A program made the position numbers and the translations under genes. A stretch of 64,000 nucleotides of DNA from a virus. The stretch covers positions 34,019 through 98,018 of the IMG/VR virus record IMGVR_UViG_3300005739_000002. One strand, given 5' to 3'. The notes under the pieces were generated by a model. The model was given only the letters and a program-made list of their open reading frames with translations, did not search any database and had not been told where the DNA came from. Position 1 is the first letter of the stretch; every line of letters starts with the position of its first letter. Positions 41,872-57,004 of this stretch are shown piece after piece.

Positions 41872-41887
41872 ATCTCTCTCTCATTTA

Positions 41888-42034: not shown

Positions 42035-42045
42035 ATCTCTCTCTC

Positions 42046-42708: not shown

Positions 42709-43019
42709 TAAATACCGTCTAGTCCGTACCCGTTCTCCATGTCGCGTGCGTCGGCTTCGTCAAGGATAGGCGCTCTTAGTCCTAATCTGTCCATGTCGGC
42801 TTCGATACTGTCGATAGCCTCATCTATCTCACCGCGTACTTCGTGGTAGTCGAAGTAACTTTCTAGTCGTTCGTCGCCGTGGCTACGCAGTACGCATAGG
42901 TCTAACGAAGCGCCAATAGCGGTGTCTAATAGGTGAATAGCGCTTGGGTCGCCATTTATATATTTAAGTACGAGGTCGTTATATTGACCTGTCTTAGGTA
43001 GAAAGTTTGTGCTGGTCAT
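42708..43019 (-). CDS. hypothetical protein
   Basis: ATGA coupling. Confidence 0.55.
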   Translation of the reverse strand: MTSTNFLPKTGQYNDLVLKYINGDPSAIHLLDTAIGASLDLCVLRSHGDERLESYFDYHEVRGEIDEAIDSIEADMDRLGLRAPILDEADARDMENGYGLDGI

Positions 43020-43180
43020 TTGCTCACGTCCTCTAGGTAGAATAGGTAGTCACCTATAGTTATTAGTAAGTTTATTAGATACTCGTCGGTTGCGTTGTGT
43101 GCTTTGACGTGACCCTGCGCTTGGGCTAGTAGGTCGCGTACTCGTTCTTTATAATCTATTGCTTCTGTTGCTATATCCAT
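43016..43180 (-). CDS. small hypothetical protein (54 aa)
   Basis: MDIATEAIDYKERVRDLL...; translated by hand. Confidence 0.45.
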   Translation of the reverse strand: MDIATEAIDYKERVRDLLAQAQGHVKAHNATDEYLINLLITIGDYLFYLEDVSK

Positions 43181-43263
43181 ATTTGTTTATCCATTTCTGT
43201 ATTTAAGTCGGAATCCCCTGCCCCGTAGCGCTTACCACGGGGCGGAGAATCCGAACGCTTGTT

Positions 43264-45132
43264 CTAGTGACGGGCGCTCATGGTCGCCTTCACTATGTCC
43301 TTCGCTAACTTCACCATGTCGGTTGGTTCCGCAATATCGCGGAAGTGCTTTGCGCCATGACGATAGCGTGCGACGGCTTTGTCGTACGCTTCTTTATCGC
43401 TATTCCAACGACGTAGGTCGTCGAGATATACGACGGCGGTCTGTACGCCGTCGGCGTTAAGGTCGGAGATTACCTTATCATTTTCCTCGGTCATATCCCA
43501 CTCGCCGTCGGTTACGATAAATAGCATACGCACGCCACGGCGACTAGATAGTAGGTGGCGTCGCGCTTCTAATAAGGCTTTGTAAGGATTAGTACCACCT
43601 GACGTATTGACGAAGCGGTATTCGGTAGGTTGCGCTTTGTCTGCCTGTGAGTAGATAAGCCTACTATCGTGGTTAAACTTATAGACCGCGACGCGACCGT
43701 TGATACGCTCGATACCGCGCTTGATAATCCATGCGCTTTCCATAACACGCTGAATCTGCCACGCCATACTGCCCGAAGTATCTACTAGGACTATTGCGTC
43801 TATGTCGTTGTTGCTATTGCCTTCGTGCCAACGGTCGAACACTTTGTCCATGTCGTTAATATCGGCACGCATGGCGCGACCTATATTTAAGCGACCCTCA
43901 GGTTGCTCTAATTGCCACGCAGGGTCGTTATCTATACGCACGCGCTCTAGGGCTACGGCGAAGGCGCGAGCGCTCGCAGATACTCTAGGGCTAACGGCTT
44001 GGTTGGAATAGTTACCTTGTTTAATAGCACTACGACGGTCACGGTTATCGTTAATAGCCTTACGGACTTCTTTAGCAGACCGTAATACTTCGTCGTTCTT
44101 GTTAAGGCTATCTAACCGTTCCTTAATATCTTTGCGTAGCACGTTATCGTCGGCTTCGTCCTTACCCTTGTTATCGAACGAACGGCTTGAGTTATCGTTA
44201 TCAGTATCGGTATCGGCAGGGTCTTTCATATCCTCAGTACCGCTACCTGCCTCGTCCTTGTTAGCCTTATTCTGTTGGGCTTCCTGTTCACGGTTACCCT
44301 TCATGCGACCCTTATCTTGTACGTCGCGGTCGCCGTGTCCATGTCCGTCCTTAGGAAGCATAGGCACGCCGTCCTTCTCGTTCACTTCGTCGCGTCCTAC
44401 TATGTCGGCTAATAGTCTTATTAACTCTAGTCCTCGGTCATAGTCGCGTGGGAATACGAGCGTGCGATACTCATGGATAATCAGCGCTAACGTCATGGCT
44501 ATATCTTTACCGAAGTGCTTTATAAATCTATCTGCGATTTCCTGACGTAACTCTATATCTAAATACTTACGACCCGTGATAAGTGGGAAGTAACTAGCGT
44601 ATTCCTCGGACTTACCCTTGAGTAAATACTCTAGGCATGACGCTTCTAAGAAAGGCGCAACGGACGGATACTTAGCGATAAGTAGCCGTTCGATACGGGC
44701 GTCCTCTAAGCAGTTATAGGCGTGTTGTAACCTCTCGGCTCTAATAGTCTTGCCAAACTCGCTACCGCTTCTAGGTGAATAAAGGACGTGGGCGACTTCA
44801 TGGTAATTAAATCCGTTGAGGGAGATAATAGTCCTATCGTCCACTTCCTCTAATAGGTGGGCGTTAAACACGATATTTTTACCGTCGTTATAGGCGGTGG
44901 TATCCATTTCAGGATTATCCTCAACGCGTACCTCTACGGGTTCTGCCGTGAGGATACGGTCGGTGCGACCATAGACCGCACCGACCGCCTGTAATTTGTT
45001 GATATGTTCCTCGATACGCTCGGCTTCTGCCTCTGCGTCAAACTCAGTATCACGATAGTTACCGTAACGTACCTGTGCGATAAGGTTATCCATAAGGTCG
45101 TTATGGTTATCGAACGCTTTGCGTGAGGACAT
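43264..45132 (-). CDS. vWA-domain protein with N-terminal HExxH (CobT-like) domain
   Basis: HEVAH, NCLEDARIE, MIDAS DTSGS, GGT, VTDG. Confidence 0.85.
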   Translation of the reverse strand: MSSRKAFDNHNDLMDNLIAQVRYGNYRDTEFDAEAEAERIEEHINKLQAVGAVYGRTDRILTAEPVEVRVEDNPEMDTTAYNDGKNIVFNAHLLEEVDDRTIISLNGFNYHEVAHVLYSPRSGSEFGKTIRAERLQHAYNCLEDARIERLLIAKYPSVAPFLEASCLEYLLKGKSEEYASYFPLITGRKYLDIELRQEIADRFIKHFGKDIAMTLALIIHEYRTLVFPRDYDRGLELIRLLADIVGRDEVNEKDGVPMLPKDGHGHGDRDVQDKGRMKGNREQEAQQNKANKDEAGSGTEDMKDPADTDTDNDNSSRSFDNKGKDEADDNVLRKDIKERLDSLNKNDEVLRSAKEVRKAINDNRDRRSAIKQGNYSNQAVSPRVSASARAFAVALERVRIDNDPAWQLEQPEGRLNIGRAMRADINDMDKVFDRWHEGNSNNDIDAIVLVDTSGSMAWQIQRVMESAWIIKRGIERINGRVAVYKFNHDSRLIYSQADKAQPTEYRFVNTSGGTNPYKALLEARRHLLSSRRGVRMLFIVTDGEWDMTEENDKVISDLNADGVQTAVVYLDDLRRWNSDKEAYDKAVARYRHGAKHFRDIAEPTDMVKLAKDIVKATMSARH

Positions 45133-46679
45133 TAGACACCTTCCGAGATAGTGTTATTAAGTGCGTTGAGTACGCCATTAAATACGGGGTGAACGTTGCT
45201 TACGTTGTTCACGTCAGGAGTGGAATCTGCTGTGGCAGTTTCCATGCCTTCGACTACTGCGCCTACTTCTGTATTTAATATGGCTTGTTCGGTATTTGTA
45301 TTGCCGAAGGTAGCCTTATTAGCAGTAACTTCCAACCCGAAATCAGTAGCGATATTGTCGCGGTGGGTTGTGAGTAATAGCCTTACTGCGCTACGTTCCT
45401 CATCACCCTCGAAGGAGTTGATATAGCAGTAGGACGCGAAGTCCATGCCTAGCGCCTTAGCGTTATCTGCGAAGGCTACGAGATTACGGGTTGAGATAGG
45501 GGTGTTGATAGTACCCTTATTAAACTCGTCGCGTAGTTGGTTCGCCATAACTAATAGGGCTTTGCTACCAATTAACTTCTGTTCGATAGCATTATCGTAT
45601 GGGAATACTAGACGCTCAGGGAAGCGGTCGGCGAGCGCCTGATTTAGTGGGCGTGTGCCTCGGTAATCGGGGTTCATGTCTGCCACGATAAGTAGGTCGG
45701 GGTGCGCTTTGATAACCTCGCCACCGTTCTCGAGTAACTGAATCTCACGGCGATAATCTAATAGGCTAAAGATAAAGGTGAGAAACCGCTCAGGTGCGAA
45801 GTTAATTTCGTTAAATAGGAGTACGCCACCATTACGGACGATTTCAGTAACGGCGCCGTCCTGCCACCTAAAGTGTCCGTCGGGAGTAGGAATCCAACGA
45901 CCGACTAGGTGTGACGCCTCAAGCCCGATATGGCATGCGACGTTAAAGTAGCGGTAGCCCCTAGCGGAAGCGTACGCCTGTACCATAGCGGTCTTACCGC
46001 TACCTGCGTGACCCTCGATAAGGACATTTTTCTTAGACGCCATAGCGTAATCCATAATCTCGAAGTCGGTTAGACCGCCTACGACCTTACGGTTGATATA
46101 CGCCTTAGCGAACGCCTTGTCGGGTACGGTCACCATAGCGGTTACGAGGTCACTACTAGCCTTATTACTCATGGCTTCGATAGTGGTTGGTCGCACCTCG
46201 ATAGGCTCGACGGTCGTGGAAGCCACGGTCGCCGAAAATTGAGGTACACCGTTAATAGGCTTGAGAGATAGACCCTGTGAGCGTCGCTTATCTGTGACGT
46301 ATTCAGAGAGGGTGGAATCCCCACTAATAAGCCTGTCGCGTAACCCTTCTACGGTGAAGTCGTGAGCGACGGGTGTGATAGGTGCGGTTGCGCTTTCTAA
46401 CGCATATAACGCCTTAATACCGACGTTAGTGATTTGACCCATGCCTAGCATTACTAGGTCGCGGTCGCTAAGTACGACCGCCACGGGAGTATGAGAGATA
46501 GGGTTAGTAGGTAGGTTGGTCGGGCGTTGCCATGCCTGTCCTCTACCCTTCGCCCCATTAGATACGCGGTGGTACGTCTGTACCTCGGTATCGGTGCCTA
46601 TGAGTAGGGTCTGCGCTTGAGCAGGTTCCCCCTCTAATATGGCGTCACTCACTACGAGTAACGCGAGGTGTGAAGTCAT
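45132..46679 (-). CDS. MoxR/CobS-like AAA+ ATPase
   Basis: GHAGSGKT, WQDG, LLFNEINF, MNPDYRGTRPLNQALADRF, ISTR; start placed at ATG 46679 with SD AAGGGG. Confidence 0.9.
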   Translation of the reverse strand: MTSHLALLVVSDAILEGEPAQAQTLLIGTDTEVQTYHRVSNGAKGRGQAWQRPTNLPTNPISHTPVAVVLSDRDLVMLGMGQITNVGIKALYALESATAPITPVAHDFTVEGLRDRLISGDSTLSEYVTDKRRSQGLSLKPINGVPQFSATVASTTVEPIEVRPTTIEAMSNKASSDLVTAMVTVPDKAFAKAYINRKVVGGLTDFEIMDYAMASKKNVLIEGHAGSGKTAMVQAYASARGYRYFNVACHIGLEASHLVGRWIPTPDGHFRWQDGAVTEIVRNGGVLLFNEINFAPERFLTFIFSLLDYRREIQLLENGGEVIKAHPDLLIVADMNPDYRGTRPLNQALADRFPERLVFPYDNAIEQKLIGSKALLVMANQLRDEFNKGTINTPISTRNLVAFADNAKALGMDFASYCYINSFEGDEERSAVRLLLTTHRDNIATDFGLEVTANKATFGNTNTEQAILNTEVGAVVEGMETATADSTPDVNNVSNVHPVFNGVLNALNNTISEGV

Positions 46680-46762
46680 AAGACCCCTTCGTATGGGTGG
46701 CGGTGTTGCCACGCCCCGAGCCTACCCTATTTCCGTATTTAAGTATCTCTCCTTCTCCAATT

Positions 46763-46781
46763 CTCAGGAAGTTATCCACAA
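46763..46781. promoter_or_regulatory. extended DnaA box 1
   Basis: CTCAGGAAG-TTATCCACA (46772-46780). Confidence 0.8.
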
Positions 46782-46911
46782 CCCCCTATCCTGATAACTC
46801 TCTGCGATAAGGCTATTAAATCTGGCCGTCCACCCACTCACTTAATACGGCTATTAAGCAGTAGCCTTCTCTCTCTCTCCTATCACGGCCGACGGCTTTT
46901 GGCAACTCTCT

Positions 46912-46930
46912 CTCAGGAACTTATCCACAG
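46912..46930. promoter_or_regulatory. extended DnaA box 2
   Basis: CTCAGGAAC-TTATCCACA (46921-46929). Confidence 0.8.
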
Positions 46931-46931
46931 G

Positions 46932-47073
46932 GTTTGTGTTGGCTCAAGGCTTGCAGCGTTGAGCCAATAGCAATGACCGCCATTTCTATATTAGAAATGG
47001 CGACATTTAGGGTGGGTACGAGTATTTCGGTATAATTTAATACCGAAATACGAGAGGGTGGGCCAACACAAAC
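46932..47073. repeat. cassette-boundary palindrome, type C (multi-hairpin)
   Basis: GTTTGTGTTGGC..GCCAACACAAAC enclosing CGCCATTTCTA/TAGAAATGGCG and GTATTTCGGTAT/ATACCGAAATAC hairpins. Confidence 0.8.
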
Positions 47074-47130
47074 TTTCCCGCAGCGGCAGCAGAGCCGTGA
47101 TTTGGTCTCCACGGTCTCCACCTCACCACC

Positions 47131-47175
47131 AAAAAGCCCTACTAGATGGCATCCTGCCTGTCTAATAGGGCTTTC
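47131..47175 (-). terminator. intrinsic terminator
   Basis: AAAAAGCCCTA.TAGA..TCTA.TAGGGCTTT, U-tract on minus strand. Confidence 0.65.
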
Positions 47176-47190
47176 TAGGGGGTATGTCCG

Positions 47191-47676
47191 CTAGCAGATT
47201 TCGAATCCACCGCTATCTGCTAAGAACTCTGCGAACTCTCGTACGTTCTCTGTTGAGAAGGGATAGTGTTTCTCCCAAGGTTCCTTCTCACGGGTTCCAT
47301 TACACGAATTACACGGGTCACGGAACTTTACAACGCCTTCTTCATAGTCAGGCCACTCAGGTTTTACCTGAACAATACCCATACCGTCACAGAAGTCGCA
47401 TTTTACATTTGGTAGGCTTTCTAAATAAGCCTTGTATTCCTTCTCATAGGCTTCACATGAGCCGTCTGATAGTTTTATCATAAGGACTTGTGATAGGAGT
47501 TCTGCGCCTTCGGCGCCTAACCCGTCACCGTCGTTGTAGTGCCCACTCACACCATTGACTAGGTCAGGTGCTACACGCTCTACATAATCCCATAGTGGTC
47601 GCCACCACCATACATTATTACGGAAGTACTCCCCTTTCTCGGATTTGGGAGCCTTACCATACACGTCCATACCCAT
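47191..47676 (-). CDS. hypothetical protein with DnaJ-like CxxCxGxG zinc finger
   Basis: MGMDVYG..YFRNNVWWWRPLW; CDFCDGMG, CNSCNGT; SD GAGGT. Confidence 0.7.
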   Translation of the reverse strand: MGMDVYGKAPKSEKGEYFRNNVWWWRPLWDYVERVAPDLVNGVSGHYNDGDGLGAEGAELLSQVLMIKLSDGSCEAYEKEYKAYLESLPNVKCDFCDGMGIVQVKPEWPDYEEGVVKFRDPCNSCNGTREKEPWEKHYPFSTENVREFAEFLADSGGFEIC

Positions 47677-47677
47677 A

Positions 47678-48199
47678 CTACTTACCTCGCTTTCTTTTCT
47701 TACCACCCAATAAGTCCTCGATAGTCATATCTAATAGGGCTATTGGGTCTTCTTTTTCGGCGGCCTCTACGATAGGCGTATTAGGGCGAAGGATTATTAG
47801 CAGGTCGTCAGGTGTATCCAACTCTAACTGATGTAGAAACTTGGCGTAAGTTCCCATTAGCATAGCCATTGGAGTAAAGGCGCCTACTACCCACGCTACA
47901 TGGATAGCCATGCTTGCCGTAGATAGGTCGTCGTCTGTGACTTCCTCGTCGTTCGCAACCTTATCAGCAAGAGTCGAGAAGCCTGTGTTGGCGAGCGCAT
48001 TTATCATATTGCCAATAAACGCCTCGTCCTCACGCATTTTGACCGCCTGTGCCATGATAGCGGTCTTTAGGTTGCCGTCTGATAAGCCTTTCGTACCGTC
48101 AGGCAACTTAGGGTCATACATATCGTTATCAGGGTCGCCCATAAGTTCTATAGACGACATAATCTCAGTAAAGCGCACCTTGCGCTCGCTACTGTTCAT
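47678..48199 (-). CDS. hypothetical protein
   Basis: first gene of cassette; SD AAGGGGG. Confidence 0.65.
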   Translation of the reverse strand: MNSSERKVRFTEIMSSIELMGDPDNDMYDPKLPDGTKGLSDGNLKTAIMAQAVKMREDEAFIGNMINALANTGFSTLADKVANDEEVTDDDLSTASMAIHVAWVVGAFTPMAMLMGTYAKFLHQLELDTPDDLLIILRPNTPIVEAAEKEDPIALLDMTIEDLLGGKKRKRGK

Positions 48200-48263
48200 T
48201 TACTACCCCCTTTGATAGGTGGCGCAACTCTACTCTCACTCTCCGTCATATAGCCATAACACT

Positions 48264-48282
48264 CTCAGAAACTTATCCACAG
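48264..48282. promoter_or_regulatory. extended DnaA box 3
   Basis: CTCAGAAAC-TTATCCACA (48273-48281); TAGAGT -10 40 nt downstream on minus strand. Confidence 0.8.
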
Positions 48283-48299
48283 GCCATCTCTCAAGCCTA

Positions 48300-48397
48300 T
48301 TTTGTTTGTGCTGGGGGCTTTTGGGCATAGGTGGGTTGAAAACCGTACCTATGCAGAGATAGCTACTTATTACCAAAAGCCCCCAGCACAAACAAAA
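48300..48397. repeat. cassette-boundary palindrome, type A
   Basis: 25-bp perfect arms TTTTGTTTGTGCTGGGGGCTTTTGG / complement; inner GCATAGGT/ACCTATGC; bulge GATAGCTACTTATTA. Confidence 0.9.
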
Positions 48398-48425
48398 AGG
48401 CCGCGAGGGAAGTCGCGGCCTTCTT
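48394..48425 (-). terminator. intrinsic terminator whose U-tract is the palindrome arm
   Basis: AAAAAGGCCGCGA..TCGCGGCCTT. Confidence 0.75.
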
Positions 48426-48442
48426 ATGACTAGGGGAAGAGT

Positions 48443-48925
48443 CTAGTCTTGTTCCTCTGCAGAGAACTCAAGATTGCTGATGATATCGCCGTCATCATAA
48501 TCAACCTCAACTGAATCAGAGGTACGTCCTTCGCCGTCGTATTCGATATCGAATGTTAGGCGTGCATTGTGAATGCTAAGGTTATCTTCTACTTCTGCGA
48601 TAGCGTCTTCCTCGGTATCGGCTTTTACATCAGTTACCTCTAGAATGTTTTCATAGAGGTAGGAAACCGTAACAGTCCAAGTACGGATTAGTGTGTCGAG
48701 GGTAGGCCATGAAACAGAGCCAACCTTCTCAGCGATAGCGTTGTATATCTCAAGGCCTTGCGCCTCGGTAACAACCTCGTTAGTAACCTTATCTCTTAGT
48801 ACATCTAAGGTTATAGTGTTGATAATGCCAACTGATTTCTCATGTTGGTTGTGACGTGTGGCAAAGACTTCGTTGTCTACCTCTTCTTTGGTATAAACTG
48901 TCTCACCGTTTATCGTATGTGACAT
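48443..48925 (-). CDS. acidic hypothetical protein
   Basis: single-gene cassette. Confidence 0.65.
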   Translation of the reverse strand: MSHTINGETVYTKEEVDNEVFATRHNQHEKSVGIINTITLDVLRDKVTNEVVTEAQGLEIYNAIAEKVGSVSWPTLDTLIRTWTVTVSYLYENILEVTDVKADTEEDAIAEVEDNLSIHNARLTFDIEYDGEGRTSDSVEVDYDDGDIISNLEFSAEEQD

Positions 48926-49001
48926 TTTCTCTCTTCCCGTAGACGCACCTTGCGCCCACGGGTCGAGTCTAATATAACTCTTTTTACAGGTCTCTCACGC
49001 T

Positions 49002-49020
49002 CACAGGAAGTTATCCACAG
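49002..49020. promoter_or_regulatory. extended DnaA box 4
   Basis: CACAGGAAG-TTATCCACA (49011-49019); TAGACT -10 39 nt downstream on minus strand. Confidence 0.8.
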
Positions 49021-49040
49021 GCTCTCTCCTAGCCCTATTA

Positions 49041-49130
49041 TGTTTGTGCTGGGCTTGCTGGTATAGGCAGTGATGATAATCCGTACCTATACCGTGATAG
49101 CTACTTATTACAGCAAGCCCAGCACAAACA
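49041..49130. repeat. cassette-boundary palindrome, type A
   Basis: 20-bp perfect arms TGTTTGTGCTGGGCTTGCTG / complement; inner GTATAGG/CCTATAC; bulge GATAGCTACTTATTA. Confidence 0.9.
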
Positions 49131-49157
49131 AAAGCCCCCGCATCTCTGCGGGGGCTT
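49130..49157 (-). terminator. intrinsic terminator
   Basis: AAAAGCCCCCGCA..TGCGGGGGCTT. Confidence 0.75.
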
Positions 49158-49169
49158 CGTAGTCTTATC

Positions 49170-49565
49170 TTAGAGCCATTGTGATACAGACTTATAGAGG
49201 CTCGCAGGAACATCAGGTTGTGCGGTCATACCTAGCAACTTGATAGTCTTACGGAGTTCCTCGTAATCGTTATCGTTGAACATGCCGTCAGGGCGGTCAG
49301 GGCGTTCTACCTGAGTAGGCAGTTTATCCTTATCTACCTTGAACTCAATTTCCAAAATACCATTCCACGAACGATAGTTAGTGTTATGGATTTCTAACTT
49401 ACCTGACTTTGCCAATGCGATAATCTTACTAGCAAAGGCTTCTTGTGCTTTGTTGTATTTTTCCTCTGCCTTCTTGTAGTCGGCACGGAACTTGTCTTGC
49501 TCGGCTAATCTGCCGTTTAGTGCGTCTAATAGGACTAGCCTATCTACTTTGATGGTTGTAGCCAT
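49170..49565 (-). CDS. hypothetical coiled-coil protein
   Basis: purine-rich SD; followed by terminator. Confidence 0.65.
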   Translation of the reverse strand: MATTIKVDRLVLLDALNGRLAEQDKFRADYKKAEEKYNKAQEAFASKIIALAKSGKLEIHNTNYRSWNGILEIEFKVDKDKLPTQVERPDRPDGMFNDNDYEELRKTIKLLGMTAQPDVPASLYKSVSQWL

Positions 49566-49592
49566 CTACCTTCCCTTTCTTATAGTTGTTGG

Positions 49593-49797
49593 TGAGCAGT
49601 TGTTCTACGACATACTCAGGTCGTTAGGATTACGCAGGTTTGCACCTACTATCCCCCTAACCCTAACGGGGTCTTGCCCTTTATTTTTCTAATCGTTGGC
49701 TACGATTACCCTTCCGTTCGGCGGTTCGCCTACTAGGCGGGATACTGATAAGCCTTTTATCCACTTGCTCAGGTGGTTCTCACGGGGGGTGAGAAAG
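49593..49797 (-). ncRNA. candidate structured RNA/leader with two compact pseudoknots
   Basis: CCAC-CTGAGCAA-GTGG..GGCTTA and ACGAC-CTGAGTAT-GTCGT..CTGCTCA; GCAA tetraloop hairpin between them. Confidence 0.5.
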
Positions 49798-50220
49798 TCA
49801 GAGTAGGTCTTTATCTACGCTGAAAAGGTCTTTTAGTGTGTTGAGTTGTTTAGCGTATTTGCGGGCTAGTGCCTTGTAGTAATCACGCTCGGCTTCTAAG
49901 TCCGAGATTAGTTTATCTACTTTGCTAATAGCCTTATCGGTAGTCATGCGCTCTGAACGCTTTGTGTATTTGCGTTTAGTGCGTTTGATAGCGTTAGCAG
50001 GATTATGTGTCCCTACATGTATGGACATCTGTGCCCTTGTTGGGGTCATGTGTCCGCAGATTTGGCAACCGAACATAGTTGTTCCGTCTAGCCATAGCAG
50101 TTCCACCATGTTGTGGAAGTAATGTCCCTTTGCCATTGGATTAGGCACGGGTTGGGATTGTAAAGGTGCGATGTTATTTCGCAAGAACTTTTGTTTGATA
50201 GTATCACCCCCCTCGTTCAT
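49798..50220 (-). CDS. C2H2-like zinc-finger protein (start uncertain)
   Basis: CQICG..H...H followed by basic segment and coiled coil. Confidence 0.6.
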   Translation of the reverse strand: MNEGGDTIKQKFLRNNIAPLQSQPVPNPMAKGHYFHNMVELLWLDGTTMFGCQICGHMTPTRAQMSIHVGTHNPANAIKRTKRKYTKRSERMTTDKAISKVDKLISDLEAERDYYKALARKYAKQLNTLKDLFSVDKDLL

Positions 50221-50337
50221 CTCTTTAGTGTTGCTCCTTTAGGAGTTGGTCGGCGACCATGTTGCTCTCCCTTCGTTAGTGTGGGCTTGTTCCCACTGAC
50301 TTATTCAACCATAATCTCAATAATCTATTTCATGGCA

Positions 50338-50356
50338 CTCAGGAAGTTATCCACAG
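50338..50356. promoter_or_regulatory. extended DnaA box 5
   Basis: CTCAGGAAG-TTATCCACA (50347-50355). Confidence 0.8.
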
Positions 50357-50369
50357 GTATCTCGTAAGG

Positions 50370-50449
50370 TTGTTTGTGTCGGGGCTTATGGGTGCATATA
50401 TCTATATAGCACCCGTAACACACACGCCCATAAGCCCCGACACAAACAA
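50370..50449. repeat. cassette-boundary palindrome, type B
   Basis: 23-bp perfect arms TTGTTTGTGTCGGGGCTTATGGG / complement; inner TATATAGC and ACACACGCCC. Confidence 0.9.
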
Positions 50450-50475
50450 AAAGCCCCGCCTTTCGGCGGGGCTCC
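50448..50475 (-). terminator. intrinsic terminator
   Basis: AAAAAGCCCCGCC-TTTC-GGCGGGGCT (GAAA tetraloop on minus strand). Confidence 0.8.
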
Positions 50476-50487
50476 TTGTTAGGCTTG

Positions 50488-51498
50488 TTAGACGCCAGCC
50501 AATTCGCGGACGGCGCGGAGTATGCGCCCCTTCTCGGCATTGACCACTGGGTCAAAGCCACTTGCCGCGCCCTTGAGCGCCTCGCCATTGGCGGTGCGAC
50601 CAGTGCGGAAATAGTCAATGCGCTCAGTGAGAGCATTGAGAGCGCCCCAATAGGTGCCCTTGATTGTTGATTGCGTAGGGGATACATGGTAAATATCCTC
50701 TAGGAGGTCGCGCTTAGCCTGCCACTTGGTCATAACTTGTGGCGCAACCGCATTGGCGTCGGGTTGCGGATAAATGGCATTGACCAATTTATCCCAATCC
50801 GCATTGGAGAGAGGAGCCTCGAAAAGAGACTTTGCGATGGACTCAAAAGAATCCATGTGAGCGAAGGTGAGACCTAGCACGCGACGCGCTTCCGCAATGC
50901 GACCCTCGACCTTGAGAGTGTGGCGCAACTTGAATGATTGCTTACATCCAGCCAGCGCCATGTTGAGCGTATTTTGGCAGACAACACGAACGGGCGTGAT
51001 TGACGCTTGAACGCTTGCGCTCCCGTCATGGGAGGTATGAACGAGCAGATAGGTGAGAGTCTTATCATTCGCCCCTTGAGGGTCGATGATGAACTCACGA
51101 GGAACGACAAGGCTACCGAAAACAACCTTGCCATTCTTGATTGAGCCAGCAGATTCCCAACTGGCGCCCCCGTCGAGAATGTTATCCCCGAATGTGAAAA
51201 GTTCCTCATTCTGGAATACGCGATAACGCTTACCGACAACCGCGAGGACATCGGTTCCAGCGTCGAACGGATTGGTGCGAACGACCATGTGAAGGTCGGT
51301 CTTTGAGCGATAGCCAGCGGGATACTGGACATCCTCTAGGCGAACATTCCAGTTCGCTAACTTTGCCGAATCCAACATGACATCGGTTGTCACATGTTCA
51401 TCAGCAGAAAAGATACGATTGGCGAGACCATGCCATGCGGGAGCGCCACGCAATGCGAACGCCACCTCACCGCCTTGAATCTCTAAATCGTGAGCCAT
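50488..51498 (-). CDS. DUF932 / TIGR03299-type phage-plasmid protein
   Basis: MAH..PAWHGL, Y..FQN, ESAGS..G, SHDGS, TPVRVVCQNTL, RHT, GT.WGA.NA.TE..D. Confidence 0.9.
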   Translation of the reverse strand: MAHDLEIQGGEVAFALRGAPAWHGLANRIFSADEHVTTDVMLDSAKLANWNVRLEDVQYPAGYRSKTDLHMVVRTNPFDAGTDVLAVVGKRYRVFQNEELFTFGDNILDGGASWESAGSIKNGKVVFGSLVVPREFIIDPQGANDKTLTYLLVHTSHDGSASVQASITPVRVVCQNTLNMALAGCKQSFKLRHTLKVEGRIAEARRVLGLTFAHMDSFESIAKSLFEAPLSNADWDKLVNAIYPQPDANAVAPQVMTKWQAKRDLLEDIYHVSPTQSTIKGTYWGALNALTERIDYFRTGRTANGEALKGAASGFDPVVNAEKGRILRAVRELAGV

Positions 51499-51571
51499 AA
51501 CAGCCCCCTTCTATGCGAGACCTTCTCGCATGCGCTCACCCTATCAGATACATCTCTCAACCCTATTAGTT

Positions 51572-51590
51572 CTCAGAAAGTTATCCACAG
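51572..51590. promoter_or_regulatory. extended DnaA box 6
   Basis: CTCAGAAAG-TTATCCACA (51581-51589); TAGGGT -10 37 nt downstream on minus strand. Confidence 0.8.
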
Positions 51591-51596
51591 GGCGCG

Positions 51597-51686
51597 ATGT
51601 TTGTGTTGGGCTGCTTATGTGTGTATATGAAGATATATAGCGAAATGTTTATACACACACGCCCATAAGCAGCCCAACACAAACAT
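51597..51686. repeat. cassette-boundary palindrome, type B
   Basis: 23-bp perfect arms ATGTTTGTGTTGGGCTGCTTATG / complement; inner TGTGTATA/TATACACA, TATATAGC, ACACACGCCC. Confidence 0.9.
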
Positions 51687-51691
51687 TCTTC

Positions 51692-51705
51692 GTTTCACGT
51701 GAAAC
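51692..51705. promoter_or_regulatory. parS: parS centromere-like site (ParB-binding consensus)
   Basis: perfect intergenic palindrome GTTTCACGTGAAAC, 15/16 match to TGTTTCACGTGAAACA. Confidence 0.8.
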
Positions 51706-51738
51706 AAAAAGGCCCGAGCGGGAAGGTGCTCGGGCCTC
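51706..51738 (-). terminator. intrinsic terminator
   Basis: AAAAAGGCCCGAGC..GCTCGGGCCT. Confidence 0.75.
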
Positions 51739-51758
51739 TTCGTAGGGGGTTTATAACC

Positions 51759-52058
51759 TCACGCCATCGCTGGCGTGAAGATTCGACGGATATAGTTTTG
51801 CTGCTTGCTTGTAGTGACGCTGAACTTCTGATTCACTACGTACCAACCATTGGCCCCATACCATGCGATTGGCGTGCTATATGATAAGACTACGTAGGCG
51901 CCCTCTTTAAAGTCTTCTACTAGTCTACTGTATTCCTCGCCTAGGCGTCCAGGTCCTGGCGTGTAGTTGTAATAACGGCCACTAAGTGAAGAGGCTTCGA
52001 ATGCTTGACGGTTAGCAATGCGCTCCATCGCTTCTTTCTGATTGACCTGCAGTCTCAT
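51759..52058 (-). CDS. hypothetical protein
   Basis: YVVLSYSTPIAW..W..KFSVTTSKQQ; ATGA coupling. Confidence 0.7.
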   Translation of the reverse strand: MRLQVNQKEAMERIANRQAFEASSLSGRYYNYTPGPGRLGEEYSRLVEDFKEGAYVVLSYSTPIAWYGANGWYVVNQKFSVTTSKQQNYIRRIFTPAMA

Positions 52059-52249
52059 GCGTCCTCCCTTGTACTGTGCCAGTAATCGGCCGCGGCTTCT
52101 GCCCTGTCCGCGTAATCCTGCTCACCCTCACTGTAACCCTTGAGGTAACCTGATATCTTGCCAGACCTGTAGGCGAAGAATCCGACAACAAGAGCAACGA
52201 GGATGTCAACGAGTAAGTTGAAACCGTTATAGAAGATGATTTCATTCAC
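52055..52249 (-). CDS. small membrane protein
   Basis: one TM segment then GY..GY..G; GTGA coupling at 52249. Confidence 0.55.
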   Translation of the reverse strand: MNEIIFYNGFNLLVDILVALVVGFFAYRSGKISGYLKGYSEGEQDYADRAEAAADYWHSTREDA

Positions 52250-52383
52250 GCTAGCGCTTTCCTTTCCTCGTCGGCGCATGTGTAGCAGATACGCCCGACG
52301 AATTCCAAAACACCTAACACGAACGCATCAACGCCACTGTGTACAATATTGCCGTCCTGCGTGGTACCGCATTTATAACACAT
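52246..52383 (-). CDS. small Cys-pair protein (45 aa)
   Basis: MCYKCG..CYTC; SD AGGGG. Confidence 0.5.
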   Translation of the reverse strand: MCYKCGTTQDGNIVHSGVDAFVLGVLEFVGRICYTCADEERKALA

Positions 52384-52458
52384 TTATAACCCCTAATCTG
52401 TGAGCCCCTTGCTCACTGGGATAAACTTAGCAGGCCTGGGATATATATCAATAACCCT

Positions 52459-52477
52459 CACAGAAAGTTATCCACAG
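52459..52477. promoter_or_regulatory. extended DnaA box 7
   Basis: CACAGAAAG-TTATCCACA (52468-52476); TAAGTT -10 38 nt downstream on minus strand. Confidence 0.8.
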
Positions 52478-52500
52478 GCAAACTCTCCTCCTATAACTCC

Positions 52501-52570
52501 CTATATTAGAACGGGGTGGGAGGGCCAACACAAACATGCGAGAGCCCCGCGCCTTGCGACGCGGGGCTTC
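52501..52570. repeat. half palindrome (type C remnant) plus terminator
   Basis: CTATATTAGAA..GGGCCAACACAAACA without left arm, then AGCCCCGCG..CGCGGGGCT. Confidence 0.6.
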
Positions 52571-52580
52571 GCTCTACTAC

Positions 52581-52955
52581 TTATGAAATTGTCGTCGTGC
52601 TCATGAGGCGGTCATCCTGAGCCTCGCCTACTTTTTCGTACCAACGGGTATCGCGCTGGATGAATGCTGCGATTATGTTAGACCATAGATTTACATGGTC
52701 AGAGCCATAATAAGGGGCGATTTTGATGTCGCATAGTTGCGTCATGTAATCGAAGTCCCATAGTTGGAACCCCTTATCATTTACCACTAGGCGGTATCCA
52801 CCTTGAGGTAATAGTTGAGAGTAAATTGGCATGGATACCAATTCGCGCTCGCGGTCAATATCTACCTCGCCGAATTCATAGAGCGAGTGTTCCGCGTTTA
52901 GTCTGCCCTCTAGTTCAGGGGTCAGACCTCCTGCGAAAGTGTAAAGAATAGTCAT
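52581..52955 (-). CDS. hypothetical protein
   Basis: first gene of the minus-strand block. Confidence 0.6.
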   Translation of the reverse strand: MTILYTFAGGLTPELEGRLNAEHSLYEFGEVDIDRERELVSMPIYSQLLPQGGYRLVVNDKGFQLWDFDYMTQLCDIKIAPYYGSDHVNLWSNIIAAFIQRDTRWYEKVGEAQDDRLMSTTTIS

Positions 52956-53047
52956 CTGACTAAACCTTCCCTACTTGGGGCGCTTACTCCTTGTTCAGCG
53001 CCCAGTGAGATAAACTTATGGCATAACCCTATTAGATACAACCGACA

Positions 53048-53086
53048 CTCAGAAAGTTATCCACAATCACAGAAAGTTATCCACAA
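53048..53086. promoter_or_regulatory. tandem extended DnaA boxes 8 and 9 (20-bp direct repeat)
   Basis: CAGAAAGTTATCCACAA x2 (boxes 53057-53065, 53077-53085); TTGTAT-N17-TAAGTT promoter follows on minus strand. Confidence 0.85.
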
Positions 53087-53203
53087 CCTAACCCTCTACC
53101 TGAGGTTGAGGGGTAGGGGTTAGACGACACGCCCGACCGCGTGGGTGGCAGGTAACATGAGTACCTATTTATACATTTAGTAGGCAGTAGCCTATAATAG
53201 AGT

Positions 53204-53668
53204 GTGCGAATAATGCGAAAGTACGGGAAGGGACACCTCGCCTTTACGCGGGGCAAGTTCGATGACTGGGCAGTCTATGTTAAATACCCAATGTTTCCTC
53301 AATGGCCCACAGACAAGTGGTACTTTATTAAGCTGCGGAGTATGGCCCTCTATGGACCCGCATACGATGATTTTGTCGCCCTTTACGATAAGACCACGGC
53401 GGAAGTTGATGAGCTGGTTTTTGACTGGATTGACGGGATAAGTACTAAGTACCCCAATGCCGAGGAGGCCGCGGTTATCTTTGGTATCTTCTATATGACT
53501 ATGATTGCAGAAGAGAACAAGGACGGGGCTATCCTAAAGAAAAGAATTAAGAGGCTAGGTGTCCATCAAGTACTCAAGGAGGGCATGAAACCAGAGCTGG
53601 CGGCTAACTATTCGCGGGGAAAGCCCGTCGGAGAGTTAACTTTAGAGTGTCACAAGAGAGGGTTCTGA
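53204..53668 (+). CDS. hypothetical protein
   Basis: TATAAT-N5-GTG; RGKFDDW..MIAEENK..KRIKRLG. Confidence 0.65.
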   Translation: MRIMRKYGKGHLAFTRGKFDDWAVYVKYPMFPQWPTDKWYFIKLRSMALYGPAYDDFVALYDKTTAEVDELVFDWIDGISTKYPNAEEAAVIFGIFYMTMIAEENKDGAILKKRIKRLGVHQVLKEGMKPELAANYSRGKPVGELTLECHKRGF

Positions 53669-53680
53669 TAGGATTAAGGC

Positions 53681-53917
53681 ATGGAACTATTAATTCTCGT
53701 ACTTATCGCTCTTGGTGTTGCTATTACCGCTGTTGCTCTTCGTGAAGATAAGTGGTTTAAGCAGGAAGACTACTCTTGGTTGGACTTTGAAGAAAAGGTT
53801 GATACCAAAGAAGAAGTCAAACCTAAGAAGAAGGCTGCTAAGAAGCCAGCTAAGAAGGCTGTAAAGAAGACAGCCAAAAAGAAGAAGCCAGCCAAGAAGG
53901 CTGCTAAGCGTCGCTAA
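53681..53917 (+). CDS. membrane-anchored protein with histone-H1-like K/A/P tail
   Basis: N-terminal TM; KKKAAKKPAKKAVKKTAKKKKPAKKAAKRR. Confidence 0.65.
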   Translation: MELLILVLIALGVAITAVALREDKWFKQEDYSWLDFEEKVDTKEEVKPKKKAAKKPAKKAVKKTAKKKKPAKKAAKRR

Positions 53918-54025
53918 TGTGTTTGAAGTGTGGGGCGTGCTCAAGAGAGCACCCCTACTCAATGGATGATGCTATAGATGCCTATGAGAGTTTAGGGTTT
54001 AAAACCCAGGCAGTAGCCTCACAAT

Positions 54026-54259
54026 ATGGTCGTGAGTTTCTACGACTATCTAGAAGAGAGCCTCGATTACCAGGGGCGCACCGCTAAGTTTGCACGTCTT
54101 GTATTCACAGACATACATAATGGTTGCGGTAGTTCTAAATATGACGCTGTAGCGTGGAAACGTCACTTTCAAGAAAAACATAAAGATTCTCCTCAATTAG
54201 TGGACATGCTTCTTCTTGCCTTTATTGAGTATTATCAGGCAAAGCGGAATAGACTTTAG
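54026..54259 (+). CDS. YozE-like small helical protein
   Basis: SFYDYL..FA..D..AF.EY pattern; leaderless. Confidence 0.45.
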   Translation: MVVSFYDYLEESLDYQGRTAKFARLVFTDIHNGCGSSKYDAVAWKRHFQEKHKDSPQLVDMLLLAFIEYYQAKRNRL

Positions 54260-54261
54260 TT

Positions 54262-54510
54262 ATGGCTAGAGATGATTGGGGCCCTGTTAAGTCGGGCGTT
54301 GTAAACCGTGCTAACGATAAAGCTCGTGTTATTGACTTAGGGGTGTACAGAAATAATCGCGACCTTGGATTTGCCAAGGGCACCTCACAAAGGCGTGCGA
54401 CAGTTGACACTCCTGATATGACACGACATGAGAACTCAGCTATGGAAGTTGGCAATCCAGAAAAATCTAAATTGCAAAAAGGCCTGCAATGGTTAGGGTT
54501 GACCGAGTGA
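54262..54510 (+). CDS. hypothetical protein
   Basis: leaderless TAGACT-N6-ATG. Confidence 0.55.
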   Translation: MARDDWGPVKSGVVNRANDKARVIDLGVYRNNRDLGFAKGTSQRRATVDTPDMTRHENSAMEVGNPEKSKLQKGLQWLGLTE

Positions 54511-54722
54511 TACCTGACGAAGACCCGATGAATGAGTACAGGAACCTTAATGATAAGTTTCCTGATAATCGTGTTAAGTATCAGCGTCCAGACCTCTCTG
54601 AGTACATGATGCGTCAAGTACGTCCAGATGAAGTTCACAATCCAAATGTAAAGCCTTATGACCCATATCATGACCCAGGTCCTTATCAATTTGGGAAAAG
54701 ACCAAAAGGATGGCGACCATGA
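54489..54722 (+). CDS. hypothetical protein (start uncertain)
   Basis: operon packing. Confidence 0.45.
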   Translation: MVRVDRVIPDEDPMNEYRNLNDKFPDNRVKYQRPDLSEYMMRQVRPDEVHNPNVKPYDPYHDPGPYQFGKRPKGWRP

Positions 54723-54786
54723 AAAAGATTATTCTTGATACTCTTATCTCTAAACCAGCGATATTTATCTATGGCTTCATTACAGG

Positions 54787-55080
54787 ATGGATAACCTATC
54801 TTCTTGTACTTGTAGCAGTTATGAGGGCATGGGGATGAAAGACCCAGCATTAGGTCGTAGCCGTGCAGAGCGTGCACTTGGCGAGGCATACCCTAAGAAG
54901 AAGGGTGTAAAGTCAAAAAAATCGGCTTCGTCAAAGAAGAAGGCTGTACGTAAGACCAACGATATTCGCAGAAATAGCAATGGGATATTTGATGGTCCGC
55001 GTCCATCATATGGAAGATACAATGTATCTGAGCAAGCTCAAGATGTTTTAAACCGTTCGTTGAATAGGAGAACCCGATAA
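54787..55080 (+). CDS. basic hypothetical protein (start probably later)
   Basis: K/R-rich; TAATG coupling to next gene. Confidence 0.5.
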   Translation: MDNLSSCTCSSYEGMGMKDPALGRSRAERALGEAYPKKKGVKSKKSASSKKKAVRKTNDIRRNSNGIFDGPRPSYGRYNVSEQAQDVLNRSLNRRTR

Positions 55081-55292
55081 TGCCAATCATTGGCCCAGTA
55101 GTAGGCGCTGTAGCAAAAGCTATAGGAGGAAGAGCTGCGCTTGGAAAAGCCGCTTCGTTTGCTAAATCACCTGCCGCTAAAATAGGTGCAGTTGGTTATA
55201 TGGCAGGAAGTTCTGGTCGTAGCGCTTCTATGCAACAGGGACAGATGGATGGCTGGTTCCCAGGTGCAGGTCAGGGTCCTGGTCAAGGATAA
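55080..55292 (+). CDS. Gly/Ala-rich hypothetical protein
   Basis: SD AGGAG, coupling. Confidence 0.55.
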   Translation: MPIIGPVVGAVAKAIGGRAALGKAASFAKSPAAKIGAVGYMAGSSGRSASMQQGQMDGWFPGAGQGPGQG

Positions 55293-55474
55293 TGAAAAGA
55301 ACTGGTGGACAATTTCCTACCTGTGAAAACTGTGGTAAAGAAATTAGAGATAAAGCTCTTAAAGTAGCCACCCGTAGACAAGGCGAGTATCAAATGTTTC
55401 ATCCTGATGCCCATGGATGTGCAAGTGCAACAGCGCCGAAGGAGCCTAGCCAACGTGCCAAAAAAAACAATTAA
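55292..55474 (+). CDS. small zinc-finger-like protein
   Basis: CENC..H....C. Confidence 0.5.
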   Translation: MKRTGGQFPTCENCGKEIRDKALKVATRRQGEYQMFHPDAHGCASATAPKEPSQRAKKNN

Positions 55475-55655
55475 AGTACAAGGTATTAAACATACCGTTA
55501 AGAAGAACAAAAAGGGCGATGTTGTAGTCGACCATGAAGCCAAAGCTAAAGCTGGCAAGTACGACAAGATTAACCTGACAAAAAAGGGTGGCTCTAAGAC
55601 AATTAAGCAGGGCGTCAAAGCCGTCCGTAAGTGGCATAAGGAGAACCCACACTAA
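55407..55655 (+). CDS. basic hypothetical protein (likely GTG start near 55455)
   Basis: HTVKKNKKGDVVVDH..DKINLT; SD AAGGAG before GTG. Confidence 0.55.
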   Translation: MPMDVQVQQRRRSLANVPKKTIKVQGIKHTVKKNKKGDVVVDHEAKAKAGKYDKINLTKKGGSKTIKQGVKAVRKWHKENPH

Positions 55656-55930
55656 TGGCTAAGTCAGCAGCATGGACCCGCAAAGAGGGTAAGAACGCCA
55701 AAGGCGGACTTAATGAAAAGGGACGCAAGTCTTATGAGAAGGCTAACCCTGGAAGCAATCTAAAGCCACCAGTTAAGCGTGAGCAGGCTAAGAAGTCTCC
55801 TAAGAGCGCCGCACGTCGTAAATCTTTCTGTGCACGTATGGAAGGTATGAAGAAGCGTAACACTAGCGCTAAGACTGCACGCGACCCTAATAGCCGTATT
55901 AACAAGAGTTTGCGAGCTTGGGATTGCTAG
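55655..55930 (+). CDS. conserved basic phage protein (DUF6321-like)
   Basis: AWTRKEGKN.KGGLN.KGR..RRKSFCARM..DPNSRINKSLRAW.C. Confidence 0.7.
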   Translation: MAKSAAWTRKEGKNAKGGLNEKGRKSYEKANPGSNLKPPVKREQAKKSPKSAARRKSFCARMEGMKKRNTSAKTARDPNSRINKSLRAWDC

Positions 55931-56087
55931 TTTGTCACCATGTGTACGAAAACACAGGATATGCTCTGTGCCCTTCCTGTGGCAAAGACACCCATGAGAT
56001 AGACTGGAATAAGCAAAATAAGTTACAAAAGAAGTGGCTGAAGGATAATCCTGATGCTTGGCGAAATGTAGGATGGTGGAGTATCTA

Positions 56088-56381
56088 ATGGCAGAGACCA
56101 AGAAGTTTGGACCCTACAAGGGCTCTAAGGCTAATGGCGGCCGCCCTATCTACGTTTATAAGAAGAAGGTCGGCGGTAAGTGGGTAACCACATCAAAGAA
56201 TAAAGCTAGGGCTGACTACGAGTCTAAGAACGGTAAACTTAAATCTAAGGATATTACGGTTGACCATAAGGACAACAACCATAATAACGACTCTAAAGGC
56301 AACCTAAGAGCCATCTCTCGCAGTAAGAATACTGCTAAAGAGAATAAGCGTCGTGCTGGTAAGAAAGAGAATGAGAAATGA
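56088..56381 (+). CDS. HNH endonuclease-like protein
   Basis: VDHKDNNHNNDSKGNLRAISRSKN; SD GGAG. Confidence 0.75.
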   Translation: MAETKKFGPYKGSKANGGRPIYVYKKKVGGKWVTTSKNKARADYESKNGKLKSKDITVDHKDNNHNNDSKGNLRAISRSKNTAKENKRRAGKKENEK

Positions 56382-56629
56382 CAGAGCGCACAGAAGGCCA
56401 GTTTGAAGGAACTACAGTTAATGTAGGACCTGACGGCGTTCACGCTATGAATAAAGAAGGCGTTAGCAAAGTCGATTTAAAGACTGGCAAAGGTCTTTTT
56501 ACCCCTTTTACCATGACTAGCAAGTCAAATCCTAATATTTCTTTTACAGGCTCTCATACAGAAGCAGGTCTTAAGATGATGAGAGAAAGACACGGAGAGA
56601 AGTGGGATATTCAAACTCATGAAGCATAA
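56378..56629 (+). CDS. hypothetical protein
   Basis: ATGA coupling. Confidence 0.5.
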   Translation: MTERTEGQFEGTTVNVGPDGVHAMNKEGVSKVDLKTGKGLFTPFTMTSKSNPNISFTGSHTEAGLKMMRERHGEKWDIQTHEA

Positions 56630-56786
56630 TGACTCTCAAGGTTTTCCAGACCCATGGACTGCAATGACAGATGAAGACTGGGCTGAAATGGATAGAAAAG
56701 CTGAAGAAGCTCATAAAAAGATGAGTGACGGCGACGGAACTAACCTATTAGACAAAAGAACTTGGAAGAGAAAGCCACCATTTTAA
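56619..56786 (+). CDS. small hypothetical protein (55 aa)
   Basis: MKHNDSQGFPDPW..; TAATG coupling; translated by hand. Confidence 0.45.
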   Translation: MKHNDSQGFPDPWTAMTDEDWAEMDRKAEEAHKKMSDGDGTNLLDKRTWKRKPPF

Positions 56787-56983
56787 TGGAAACTGTAACT
56801 GCACGAGAACTAACGGCTTTAGACCGCTGTGATAAGTGCAGTGCTGCAGCCCGTGTAATTGCAACTTTTCTAAATGGTGAGTTAATGTTTTGCGGTCATC
56901 ACGCAAGAGAACAACGTGATGCGCTACTTAATAAAGCTGCATCAGTTTACGACCCAGATAAATATATTTTAATGTTAAAATAG
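56786..56983 (+). CDS. small actinobacterial-type zinc-finger protein
   Basis: LTALDRCDKC.A.A..GELMFCGHH. Confidence 0.7.
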   Translation: METVTARELTALDRCDKCSAAARVIATFLNGELMFCGHHAREQRDALLNKAASVYDPDKYILMLK

Positions 56984-57004
56984 ACTTCTACTTAGGAGTC
57001 TTAA

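Follow-up and report, generated by a model that had tools for sequence, protein, structure and literature searches.

Several described systems come close to the locus considered here. In T4-type phages, promoter-plus-terminator repeats known as promoter-stem-loop (PeSL) units flank small early genes, and recombination between these units explains insertions, deletions and replacements (Arbiol et al. 2010, PMC2839356). In the temperate cluster A mycobacteriophages, stoperator sites are read by the phage's own immunity repressor (PMC6550527). DnaA, the replication initiator, is also a transcription factor and an activator of the lambda pR promoter (PMC8203912, PMC11317965), while phage T5 carries eight DnaA boxes, in pairs 3 bp apart, within one non-coding repeat region (bioRxiv 10.1101/866236). 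The DNA analyzed here, which we call the window, is the 64,000-nucleotide (nt) stretch that spans positions 34019-98018 of the 98,018-bp genome of an IMG/VR virus record (IMGVR_UViG_3300005739_000002). On its minus strand lies a probable early (host-takeover) block of at least seven autonomous transcription cassettes, separated by repeated modules that carry a DnaA box. We lean, if modestly, toward reading this locus as a PeSL-like array of early cassettes in which host RNA polymerase would read the promoters, host DnaA at the box would modulate them, and the modules would both insulate the cassettes and recombine.

The central element is an 18-mer, TGTGGATAASTTYCTGWG, in which a perfect DnaA box is followed by TTYCTGWG. 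It is present in nine exact copies between 46763 and 53085, all on the minus strand, compared with 0.04 matches expected from shuffled sequences, and this bears out an earlier note on this DNA that had described the 18-mer in the spacers on that strand. The nine copies match the DnaA consensus TT(A/T)TNCACA at 9 of 9 positions, and they contain all nine perfect occurrences of TGTGGATAA both in the window and in the complete genome. Boxes are spaced 0.15-1.35 kb apart, except for a pair at 53048-53085 separated by 20 nt. A search for the exact 18-mer across IMG/VR returned 45 contigs with one match each, close to the chance level; in its full form the 18-mer is confined to this phage.

Each module opens with an intrinsic terminator and a long palindrome that shares the T tract of the terminator, continues with the box and TTYCTGWG, and after about 30 nt that include a weak -35 element reaches a TANNNT -10 element, a 5'-terminal stem-loop, a Shine-Dalgarno (SD) site and one to three small genes. 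Folding of the spacers gave a GC-rich terminator stem with a T run, and in five of them the 5' arm of the palindrome starts within this run. The same hairpin ends, TGTTTGTG...CACAAACA, occur in five long inverted repeats, each 3' of a GC-rich stem with a T run. The claim that six spacers share one architecture thus stands for the five with terminator, hairpin and box, and fails for the spacer at 52280-52580, which keeps only the left half of the hairpin. Elsewhere, the divergent region at 52956-53203 has its two boxes without a hairpin, a distance of 149 nt separates the two boxes of the last spacer, and the gap at 49566-49797 has no module.

The long hairpins found by folding follow the terminator of a 99-amino-acid (aa) gene (51597-51686, with 42-nt arms), that of the DUF932 gene (50370-50449, with a 23-bp perfect stem), that of a 131-aa gene (49038-49133) and that of a 160-aa gene (48287-48410, a near-duplicate of the hairpin at 49038-49133). 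The last, behind a 161-aa gene, is a composite whose outer arms enclose three inner stem-loops (46932-47073). The intrinsic terminator of the 99-aa gene, a GC-rich stem and T run, lies at 51704-51743 on the minus strand, and equivalent minus-strand terminators are located at 52543-52568, 50445-50480, 49131-49158, 48394-48425 and 47126-47181.

The position of the box is tied to the promoter. At six of the eight promoter-proximal boxes a TANNNT hexamer begins 47-52 nt downstream, counted from the first base of the box; shuffled sequences gave a mean of 0.66, and none of 20,000 shuffles reached six. The distance from hairpin to box, by comparison, varies from 2 to 22 nt, which argues that the box is part of the promoter and not of the terminator. 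Ahead of the first cassette, the divergent control region holds two 18-mers (53048-53085). The next precedes the second cassette, with genes for a 45-aa Cys-rich, a 74-aa and a 99-aa protein (52459-52476, with a TAAGTT -10 48 nt after the box), and is followed by those of the DUF932 cassette (51572-51589, TAGGGT at 51538-51543, 47 nt after the box), the cassette for a 140-aa zinc-finger protein and a 131-aa protein (50338-50355, with an ambiguous -10), the cassette for a 160-aa acidic protein (49002-49019, TATATT and TAGACT at 44 and 49 nt) and the cassette for 173-aa and 161-aa proteins (48264-48281, TAGAGT at 50 nt). The copy at 46912-46929 is followed by about 130 nt without a convincing open reading frame (ORF), and the copy at 46763-46780 by an operon for an AAA_5 ATPase and a VWA protein (TAGGGT at 52 nt). 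In this last spacer the first box has TGATAGGAG at the usual offset, then the stretch of about 130 nt with a local stem-loop (46780-46929) and then the second box; relatives also have two boxes in the last spacer, 197-236 nt apart. The 46780-46929 stretch may be a cassette for a small RNA or a micro-ORF.

Leader hairpins and SD sites, which had been proposed from the sequence, are present. A stem-loop in the 5' untranslated region of the DUF932 mRNA (51513-51531, minus strand) starts 6-8 nt after the -10 element, and in more than 12 relatives the region upstream of DUF932 follows the same order of -10 hexamer, 6-8 nt, stem-loop and SD, with different stem sequences and conserved pairing. This rule argues that transcripts begin at the foot of the 5' stem-loop, which would place the box at about -58 to -50 and TTYCTGWG at about -48 to -41 relative to the predicted start. 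RNAalifold predicted no structure on a plain MAFFT alignment of the DUF932 leaders because the stems are out of register in the alignment; folds of single sequences place a stem-loop at the same position, with modest z-scores. Actinobacterial promoters have a TANNNT -10 and a weak -35, so it is expected that a scan for the E. coli-type sigma-70 consensus found no enrichment (12 sites, compared with 14.4 in shuffles).

Box-bound DnaA could instead act as a roadblock, an orientation-dependent protein terminator like that at E. coli asnC, that stops read-through from the upstream cassette. The boxes do lie just downstream of a terminator and hairpin and in one orientation relative to transcription, and DnaA roadblocks are documented in the work of Schaefer and Messer (1988 and 1989) as it is cited in PMC10950094 and PMC11317965. 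However, the fixed distance is that to the downstream -10 element, the distance to the hairpin being the variable one, and the two boxes of the divergent region have no upstream gene to insulate. We therefore see only a slim chance that this is the role of the boxes.

Comparison with related loci, 20 of them reached through the AAA_5 ATPase and 80 through DUF932, separated the 9-mer from its surroundings. The box is conserved in position and orientation in L063/L074, L064/L078, L076, L077, L061 and L058-60. L112 has it in the same orientation together with a convergent partner box, and L082 is similar, with some boxes reversed. In L063, L064, L061, L058-60 and L112 the bases 3' of the 9-mer differ by lineage while the 9-mer itself is invariant. 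Across 63 non-redundant DUF932 loci the perfect 9-mer was found 186 times, compared with 8.5 expected, and the most enriched variant with one mismatch was TTTTCCACA, which the DnaA consensus permits. In the convergent box pairs, one in each module of L112, the second box varies mainly at the N of TTATNCACA, and a promoter of the form TTGNNN-N18-TAGACT follows the pair. In the contigs of four relatives (one complete, closed on terminal repeats, one 99% complete and two partial), few boxes lie outside the array or on the other strand, with counts on the two strands of 11/0, 9/1, 6/1 and 1/6. More distant clades have tandem box pairs. Two further arrangements were seen. A conserved cluster of three boxes, 4-5 kb downstream of DUF932, is common to L120, L123, L128, L130, L133 and L134, and L152 has more than ten boxes and near-boxes in 200 bp (1319-1494), in both orientations, like a chromosomal origin.

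These comparisons also bear on the simplest alternative, in which nothing reads the 18-mer and its copies resemble one another only as parts of spacers recently copied from one module and held similar by gene conversion. This alternative has in its favor the near-duplicate modules at 49038-49133 and 48287-48410 and the comparison of the window with L075, where the hairpin is 97% identical and the neighboring 131-aa gene 72%. Within the spacers, however, the bases around the 18-mer have diverged freely and the 9-mer has not, and the 9-mer is invariant across lineages whose flanks cannot be aligned. We find this explanation hardly credible.

A reader of the box could come from the phage or from its host. 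No DnaA C-terminal domain, sigma factor (sigma-70 region 2 or 4) or T7-type RNA polymerase was found in the genome. No protein of this phage was shared by both complete box-bearing relatives (G004 and G005) and absent from G001, a close sister without boxes, and in the arrays no ORF family was limited to one type of motif at the box position (two loci with PHO-type and two with CCTGTGA-type motifs, described below). As for the host, tandem perfect boxes occur in 37 of the 301 Actinomycetota genomes sampled. About 22 of these genomes have dense clusters, several of which stand at the start of complete chromosomes, while the reversed control pattern gave two matches in all 301 genomes. The commonest actinobacterial pair, two boxes with an ACC spacer, is identical to the pairs in the distant phage loci. 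Collectively, the failure of these searches to find a phage reader, the clusters in Actinomycetota and the identical ACC pair favor host DnaA.

A phage-encoded regulator that switches the early cassettes from these sites, as in the stoperator systems, would make the identity with the DnaA box a coincidence or a convergence. The points of likeness to stoperators are an actinobacterial phage with many asymmetric, intergenic sites that are co-oriented with transcription (9 of 9 here, and likewise in relatives) and have a lineage-specific word (PMC6550527), which differs completely even between the sisters L074 and L075. The array also encodes a fast-evolving, basic C2H2 zinc-finger protein. The word here, however, is the consensus of a host factor, and clades with DUF932 proteins that are only 50-60% identical share the perfect match, 9 of 9, to the strongest DnaA box; the ACC-spaced tandem pair of the distant phages is, in addition, the commonest pair in actinobacterial clusters of the origin type. 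Neither in the arrays nor genome-wide does any protein family track the motif type, and the zinc-finger proteins of L063/L074 and of L054/L075 are 73-75% identical despite the different words. No integrase was found, and no repressor was recognized among the scanned proteins. A phage regulator as the reader is accordingly unlikely.

With host DnaA as the preferred reader, host RNA polymerase would recognize the TANNNT promoters and DnaA would bind just upstream of the -35 region, at about -55, and modulate initiation, as an activator or as a repressor. Early phage expression would be tied to the level or state of host DnaA, and the nine strong sites that each genome copy brings may incidentally titrate DnaA. 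Known DnaA-regulated promoters (among them dnaA, nrdAB and lambda pR) likewise have a consensus 9-mer near the promoter, and lambda provides a phage precedent; the difference is that here one perfect box stands at the same offset before nearly every early promoter, nine times.

Several observations weigh against a role for DnaA. The close sister G001 (locus L054) has the same modules with the words CCTGTGAG and CGGCGTGTCG in place of the box, so a DnaA input is dispensable or optional. A phage regulator that co-evolves with its sites would likewise leave lineage-specific words at one slot. No box clusters were found in three Acidimicrobiales chromosomes, which were reached through WhiB matches and are not necessarily those of hosts, and high-GC actinobacteria prefer TTGTCCACA (PMC4285127). 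The -10 assignment, too, has gaps: in the spacer at 50221-50487 the -10 is ambiguous and no TANNNT stands at the 47-52 nt offset, and in the last spacer the first box (46912-46929) is followed at that offset by TAGGAG only and then by no clear ORF. The TANNNT elements predicted in the earlier note were recovered at the remaining six promoters. Start sites and timing are predictions from the sequence, as the single metatranscriptome run (X20) gave eight short, low-depth contigs that carry no start-site, strand or timing information and may stem from DNA carry-over. On balance, the sequence is best read as the proposal has it, with expression wired to host DnaA, given the 9 of 9 match, the invariant 9-mer, the phasing to the -10 element and the host clusters; the boxless array of G001 qualifies this reading.

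The differences between relatives at the position of the box have a pattern of their own. The scaffold of terminator and long hairpin is conserved across a well-supported clade of 24 loci, and the base of the hairpin covaries, with the pairs TGTTTGTG/CACAAACA, TTGTTGAG/CTCAACAA, TTGTTAGG/CCTAACAA, TTGTTACG/CGTAACAA and TGTTTGGG/CCCAAACA. On this scaffold the word in the slot after the hairpin changes. The subclade of the window has a DnaA box there, L080 (nine pairs in 7.3 kb) and L096/L097 have tandem 11-nt repeats built on a GTTYAYC core, L094 and L075 have CCTGTGA (TCACAG-type) repeats, and L079, L081, L083-L091, L095 and L121 have ATAACG repeats with an 11-nt period. In the DUF932 tree the slot types switch between sisters, as in L074 and L075, and the PHO and CCTGTGA types are each seen twice. 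A further word, CGGGCGTGTCG, has 12 copies in L075. Distant lineages share it, with L096, L099 and many more loci among them, where it often forms inverted pairs that surround the boxes, and it stands at 53130-53141 of the window; it contains GACAC, which we take to be the WhiA core.

Two of these words resemble the sites of known regulators. The PHO boxes bound by Streptomyces PhoP consist of 11-nt direct repeat units with a GTTCACC core (PMC2691820), and L080 and L096/L097 share both the unit length and the core, a likeness of sequence and periodicity only, at the slot that holds the DnaA box in the window; the window itself has no PHO boxes. Read on the opposite strand, CCTGTGA is similar to the MtrA box and to the 7+4 repeats of M. 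tuberculosis PhoP (PMC4285127, PMC4832192), and the 18-mer of the window can thereby be understood as a DnaA box fused to one CCTGTGA-type half-site. We tentatively suggest that the slot between the hairpin and the -10 element, which covers roughly positions -60 to -20 relative to the start, is an exchangeable port for global regulators of the host through which the whole early program could be rewired, a possibility that we hold with less than even confidence. This phage would plug in DnaA, and its sisters would plug in PhoP-type PHO boxes, TCACAG repeats (MtrA/PhoP-like), ATAACG repeats or a GC-rich word. Such rewiring would proceed by concerted replacement at all promoters on the conserved scaffold of terminator, hairpin, promoter and stem-loop.

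It had further been proposed that the array mimics a host origin and carries a parS site. A parS-like palindrome does lie between the terminator and the hairpin at 51691-51706, with a 15 of 16 match to the consensus and a perfect 14-bp palindrome, and it is the only one in the genome. Among 20 related loci there was no match within three mismatches, and L074 and L075 have unrelated bases at the corresponding position. The parS claim thus holds for the sequence match and is not supported by conservation; the site may be a strain-specific acquisition or a chance match, and we doubt that it is functional. In the origin-mimic explanation the nine boxes would titrate DnaA and the parS-like site would load ParB, so that host replication or segregation stalls and any effect on transcription is secondary. 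There are nine high-affinity sites per genome copy and the parS-like palindrome is about 100 nt from a box, datA box clusters are known to titrate DnaA (PMC11317965), and relatives of T5 keep DnaA boxes in the first-entering DNA, with a hypothetical function (bioRxiv 10.1101/866236). The boxes here, however, are mostly single, widely spaced and phased to promoters and not clustered, G001 has none, and the parS-like site is unique to this genome. We consider a host-origin mimic improbable.

A replication origin of the oriC type was rejected, as the boxes are not clustered beside an AT-rich unwinding element. The window has neither such an element nor a box cluster; among the distant relatives, L152 has an oriC-like cluster. 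In this array and in the T5 injection-stop region alike, DNA that is probably the first to enter holds DnaA boxes and large palindromes, and the function is argued from sequence; in contrast to the T5 pairs, the boxes in the window are single, promoter-phased and spread over 6.3 kb.

The comparison with relatives supports the PeSL part of the interpretation more directly. The 160-aa cassette is flanked by two near-duplicate modules of hairpin and box, and L074 and L075 have one module and no gene at this position. Where the window has its first cassette, L074 has two other cassettes, with homologous module flanks on either side of the replacement. L064/L078 have the zinc-finger cassette before DUF932, on the other side compared with the window, and an extra 178-aa cassette. 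That the hairpin of the 131-aa gene is more alike between the window and L075 than the neighboring gene is what would be expected of a recombination joint. The region is therefore modular and shufflable, as had been suggested: a comparison of related loci for cassette turnover, which the earlier note had called for, found the breakpoints at modules, with cassettes gained, lost, replaced and reordered there in L064, L074, L075 and L078.

As in PeSL cassettes, a compact repeated unit of terminator and predicted promoter recurs at six boundaries (one with half a hairpin), the units flank small accessory genes whose content varies between relatives, and the breakpoints of insertions, deletions and replacements fall in the units. 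The repeated modules would serve as recombination joints, like the PeSL units of T4-type phages. The differences are the actinobacterial, not T4-type, phage, the TANNNT promoter with a weak -35, a long palindrome in addition to the terminator, and a DnaA box at a fixed upstream position. The description of the locus as a new system was thus overstated, and it is better regarded as a variant of PeSL-type cassettes combined with DnaA as a transcription factor.

The long hairpin, whose structural conservation extends across the relatives, is most likely a back-up terminator or insulator and a homology patch for recombination. A second terminator without a U tract, an RNase III site on read-through RNA and a cruciform that promotes recombination would all fit. 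Rfam gave only sub-threshold microRNA-like or leader-like matches for the palindromes, which we regard as meaningless. An integron was rejected, as there is no IntI-type tyrosine recombinase, each cassette owns its promoter, and the hairpin base, which covaries between lineages, is not the RYYYAAC...GTTRRRY of attC sites. The single-stranded DNA hairpin promoters of plasmid leading regions were also rejected, as the phage is a tailed double-stranded DNA phage and the -10 element lies outside the hairpin.

The cassettes contain one to three genes each, for proteins of 45-336 aa that mostly belong to no known family. They had been said to differ in oligonucleotide signature; they do, and the differences are modest (GC content 0.44-0.54). 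The first cassette holds a 124-aa gene (52581-52955, minus strand, as are all the genes below) that is unique to this phage, with no homologue in the relatives compared. The 45-aa ORF of the second cassette (52246-52383), which is shorter than the usual ORF cut-off, comes straight after the leader and has its own SD site and two CxxC pairs; the product looks like a small zinc-ribbon protein. The DUF932 gene (50488-51498, 336 aa) is the conserved anchor of the array, with a Pfam match (E = 3.8e-49) that confirms the family assigned to it before and its link to plasmids, as the family is found on actinobacterial plasmids. The 140-aa protein (49798-50220) is basic (isoelectric point 9.7), has a C2H2-type zinc finger, is 41-49% identical in relatives, and is a candidate phage DNA binder. 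The 160-aa protein (48443-48925) is very acidic (isoelectric point 4.1), with 37 acidic and 10 basic residues, the make-up of DNA-mimic anti-restriction proteins. The operon for the AAA_5 (CobS-like) ATPase and the VWA protein, identified by family matches, ends the array (43264-46682).

The array is contained in a 13-kb block of opposite-strand genes (39950-53320, minus strand) with few AGCT and TGCA words, 2 observed versus 40 expected for AGCT and 7 versus 34 for TGCA, while the rest of the genome has 403 and 380, close to expectation. GATC and CCGG are missing from all 98 kb, and the AGCT/TGCA purge is confined to this block. Such a local purge fits DNA that meets restriction before the protective functions of the phage act, and the block is probably an early or first-entering region. 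In the BE-cluster phages of Streptomyces a DUF932 homologue lies 1.6-2.2 kb from the genome end, with two matches per record, a position and duplication that fit a location in terminal repeats. DUF932 homologues 1-2.4 kb from the record end were also seen on three linear Streptomyces plasmids (H36-H38), in addition to the BE-cluster phages (H2-H30), and the family may favor the ends of replicons. The divergent partner of the array (53204-57000) is one tightly packed operon of small, often Lys-rich genes with a single sigma-70-like promoter, TATACA-N17-TATAAT, at 53170-53198 on the plus strand. It has no internal modules or boxes, so that two organizations stand back to back.

The phage that carries this array is tailed and lytic. 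The genome encodes baseplate and tail proteins, a family A DNA polymerase, a helicase, a UvsX-like recombinase, a ribonucleotide reductase and three tRNAs, and a search of the whole 98 kb for a tyrosine integrase (PF00589) found no match. The assembly closes on a 55-bp overlap as a circle, and the true genome ends are therefore not readable from it. The host is probably a member of the Actinomycetota, because the phage encodes two WhiB proteins with relatives nearly all from this phylum, and DUF932 matches Streptomyces phages and plasmids of Mycobacterium, Streptomyces and Rhodococcus. The sequencing runs that contain the stretch are labeled as freshwater, lake, reservoir or sediment metagenomes, and freshwater actinophages of this kind are a large, uncultured group.

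The array extends PeSL-style shuffling of cassettes beyond the T4-type phages. If host DnaA reads the boxes, almost every early promoter of a lytic phage is gated by the status of the host replication initiator, a situation known only from isolated cases such as lambda pR. The modules would also supply insulated promoter-terminator parts for use in actinobacteria. Across the relatives, the same scaffold carries different regulator sites, two of which match known actinobacterial regulators (DnaA and PhoP), and an exchangeable slot would make these actinophages a natural experiment in the rewiring of viral early expression to host physiology.

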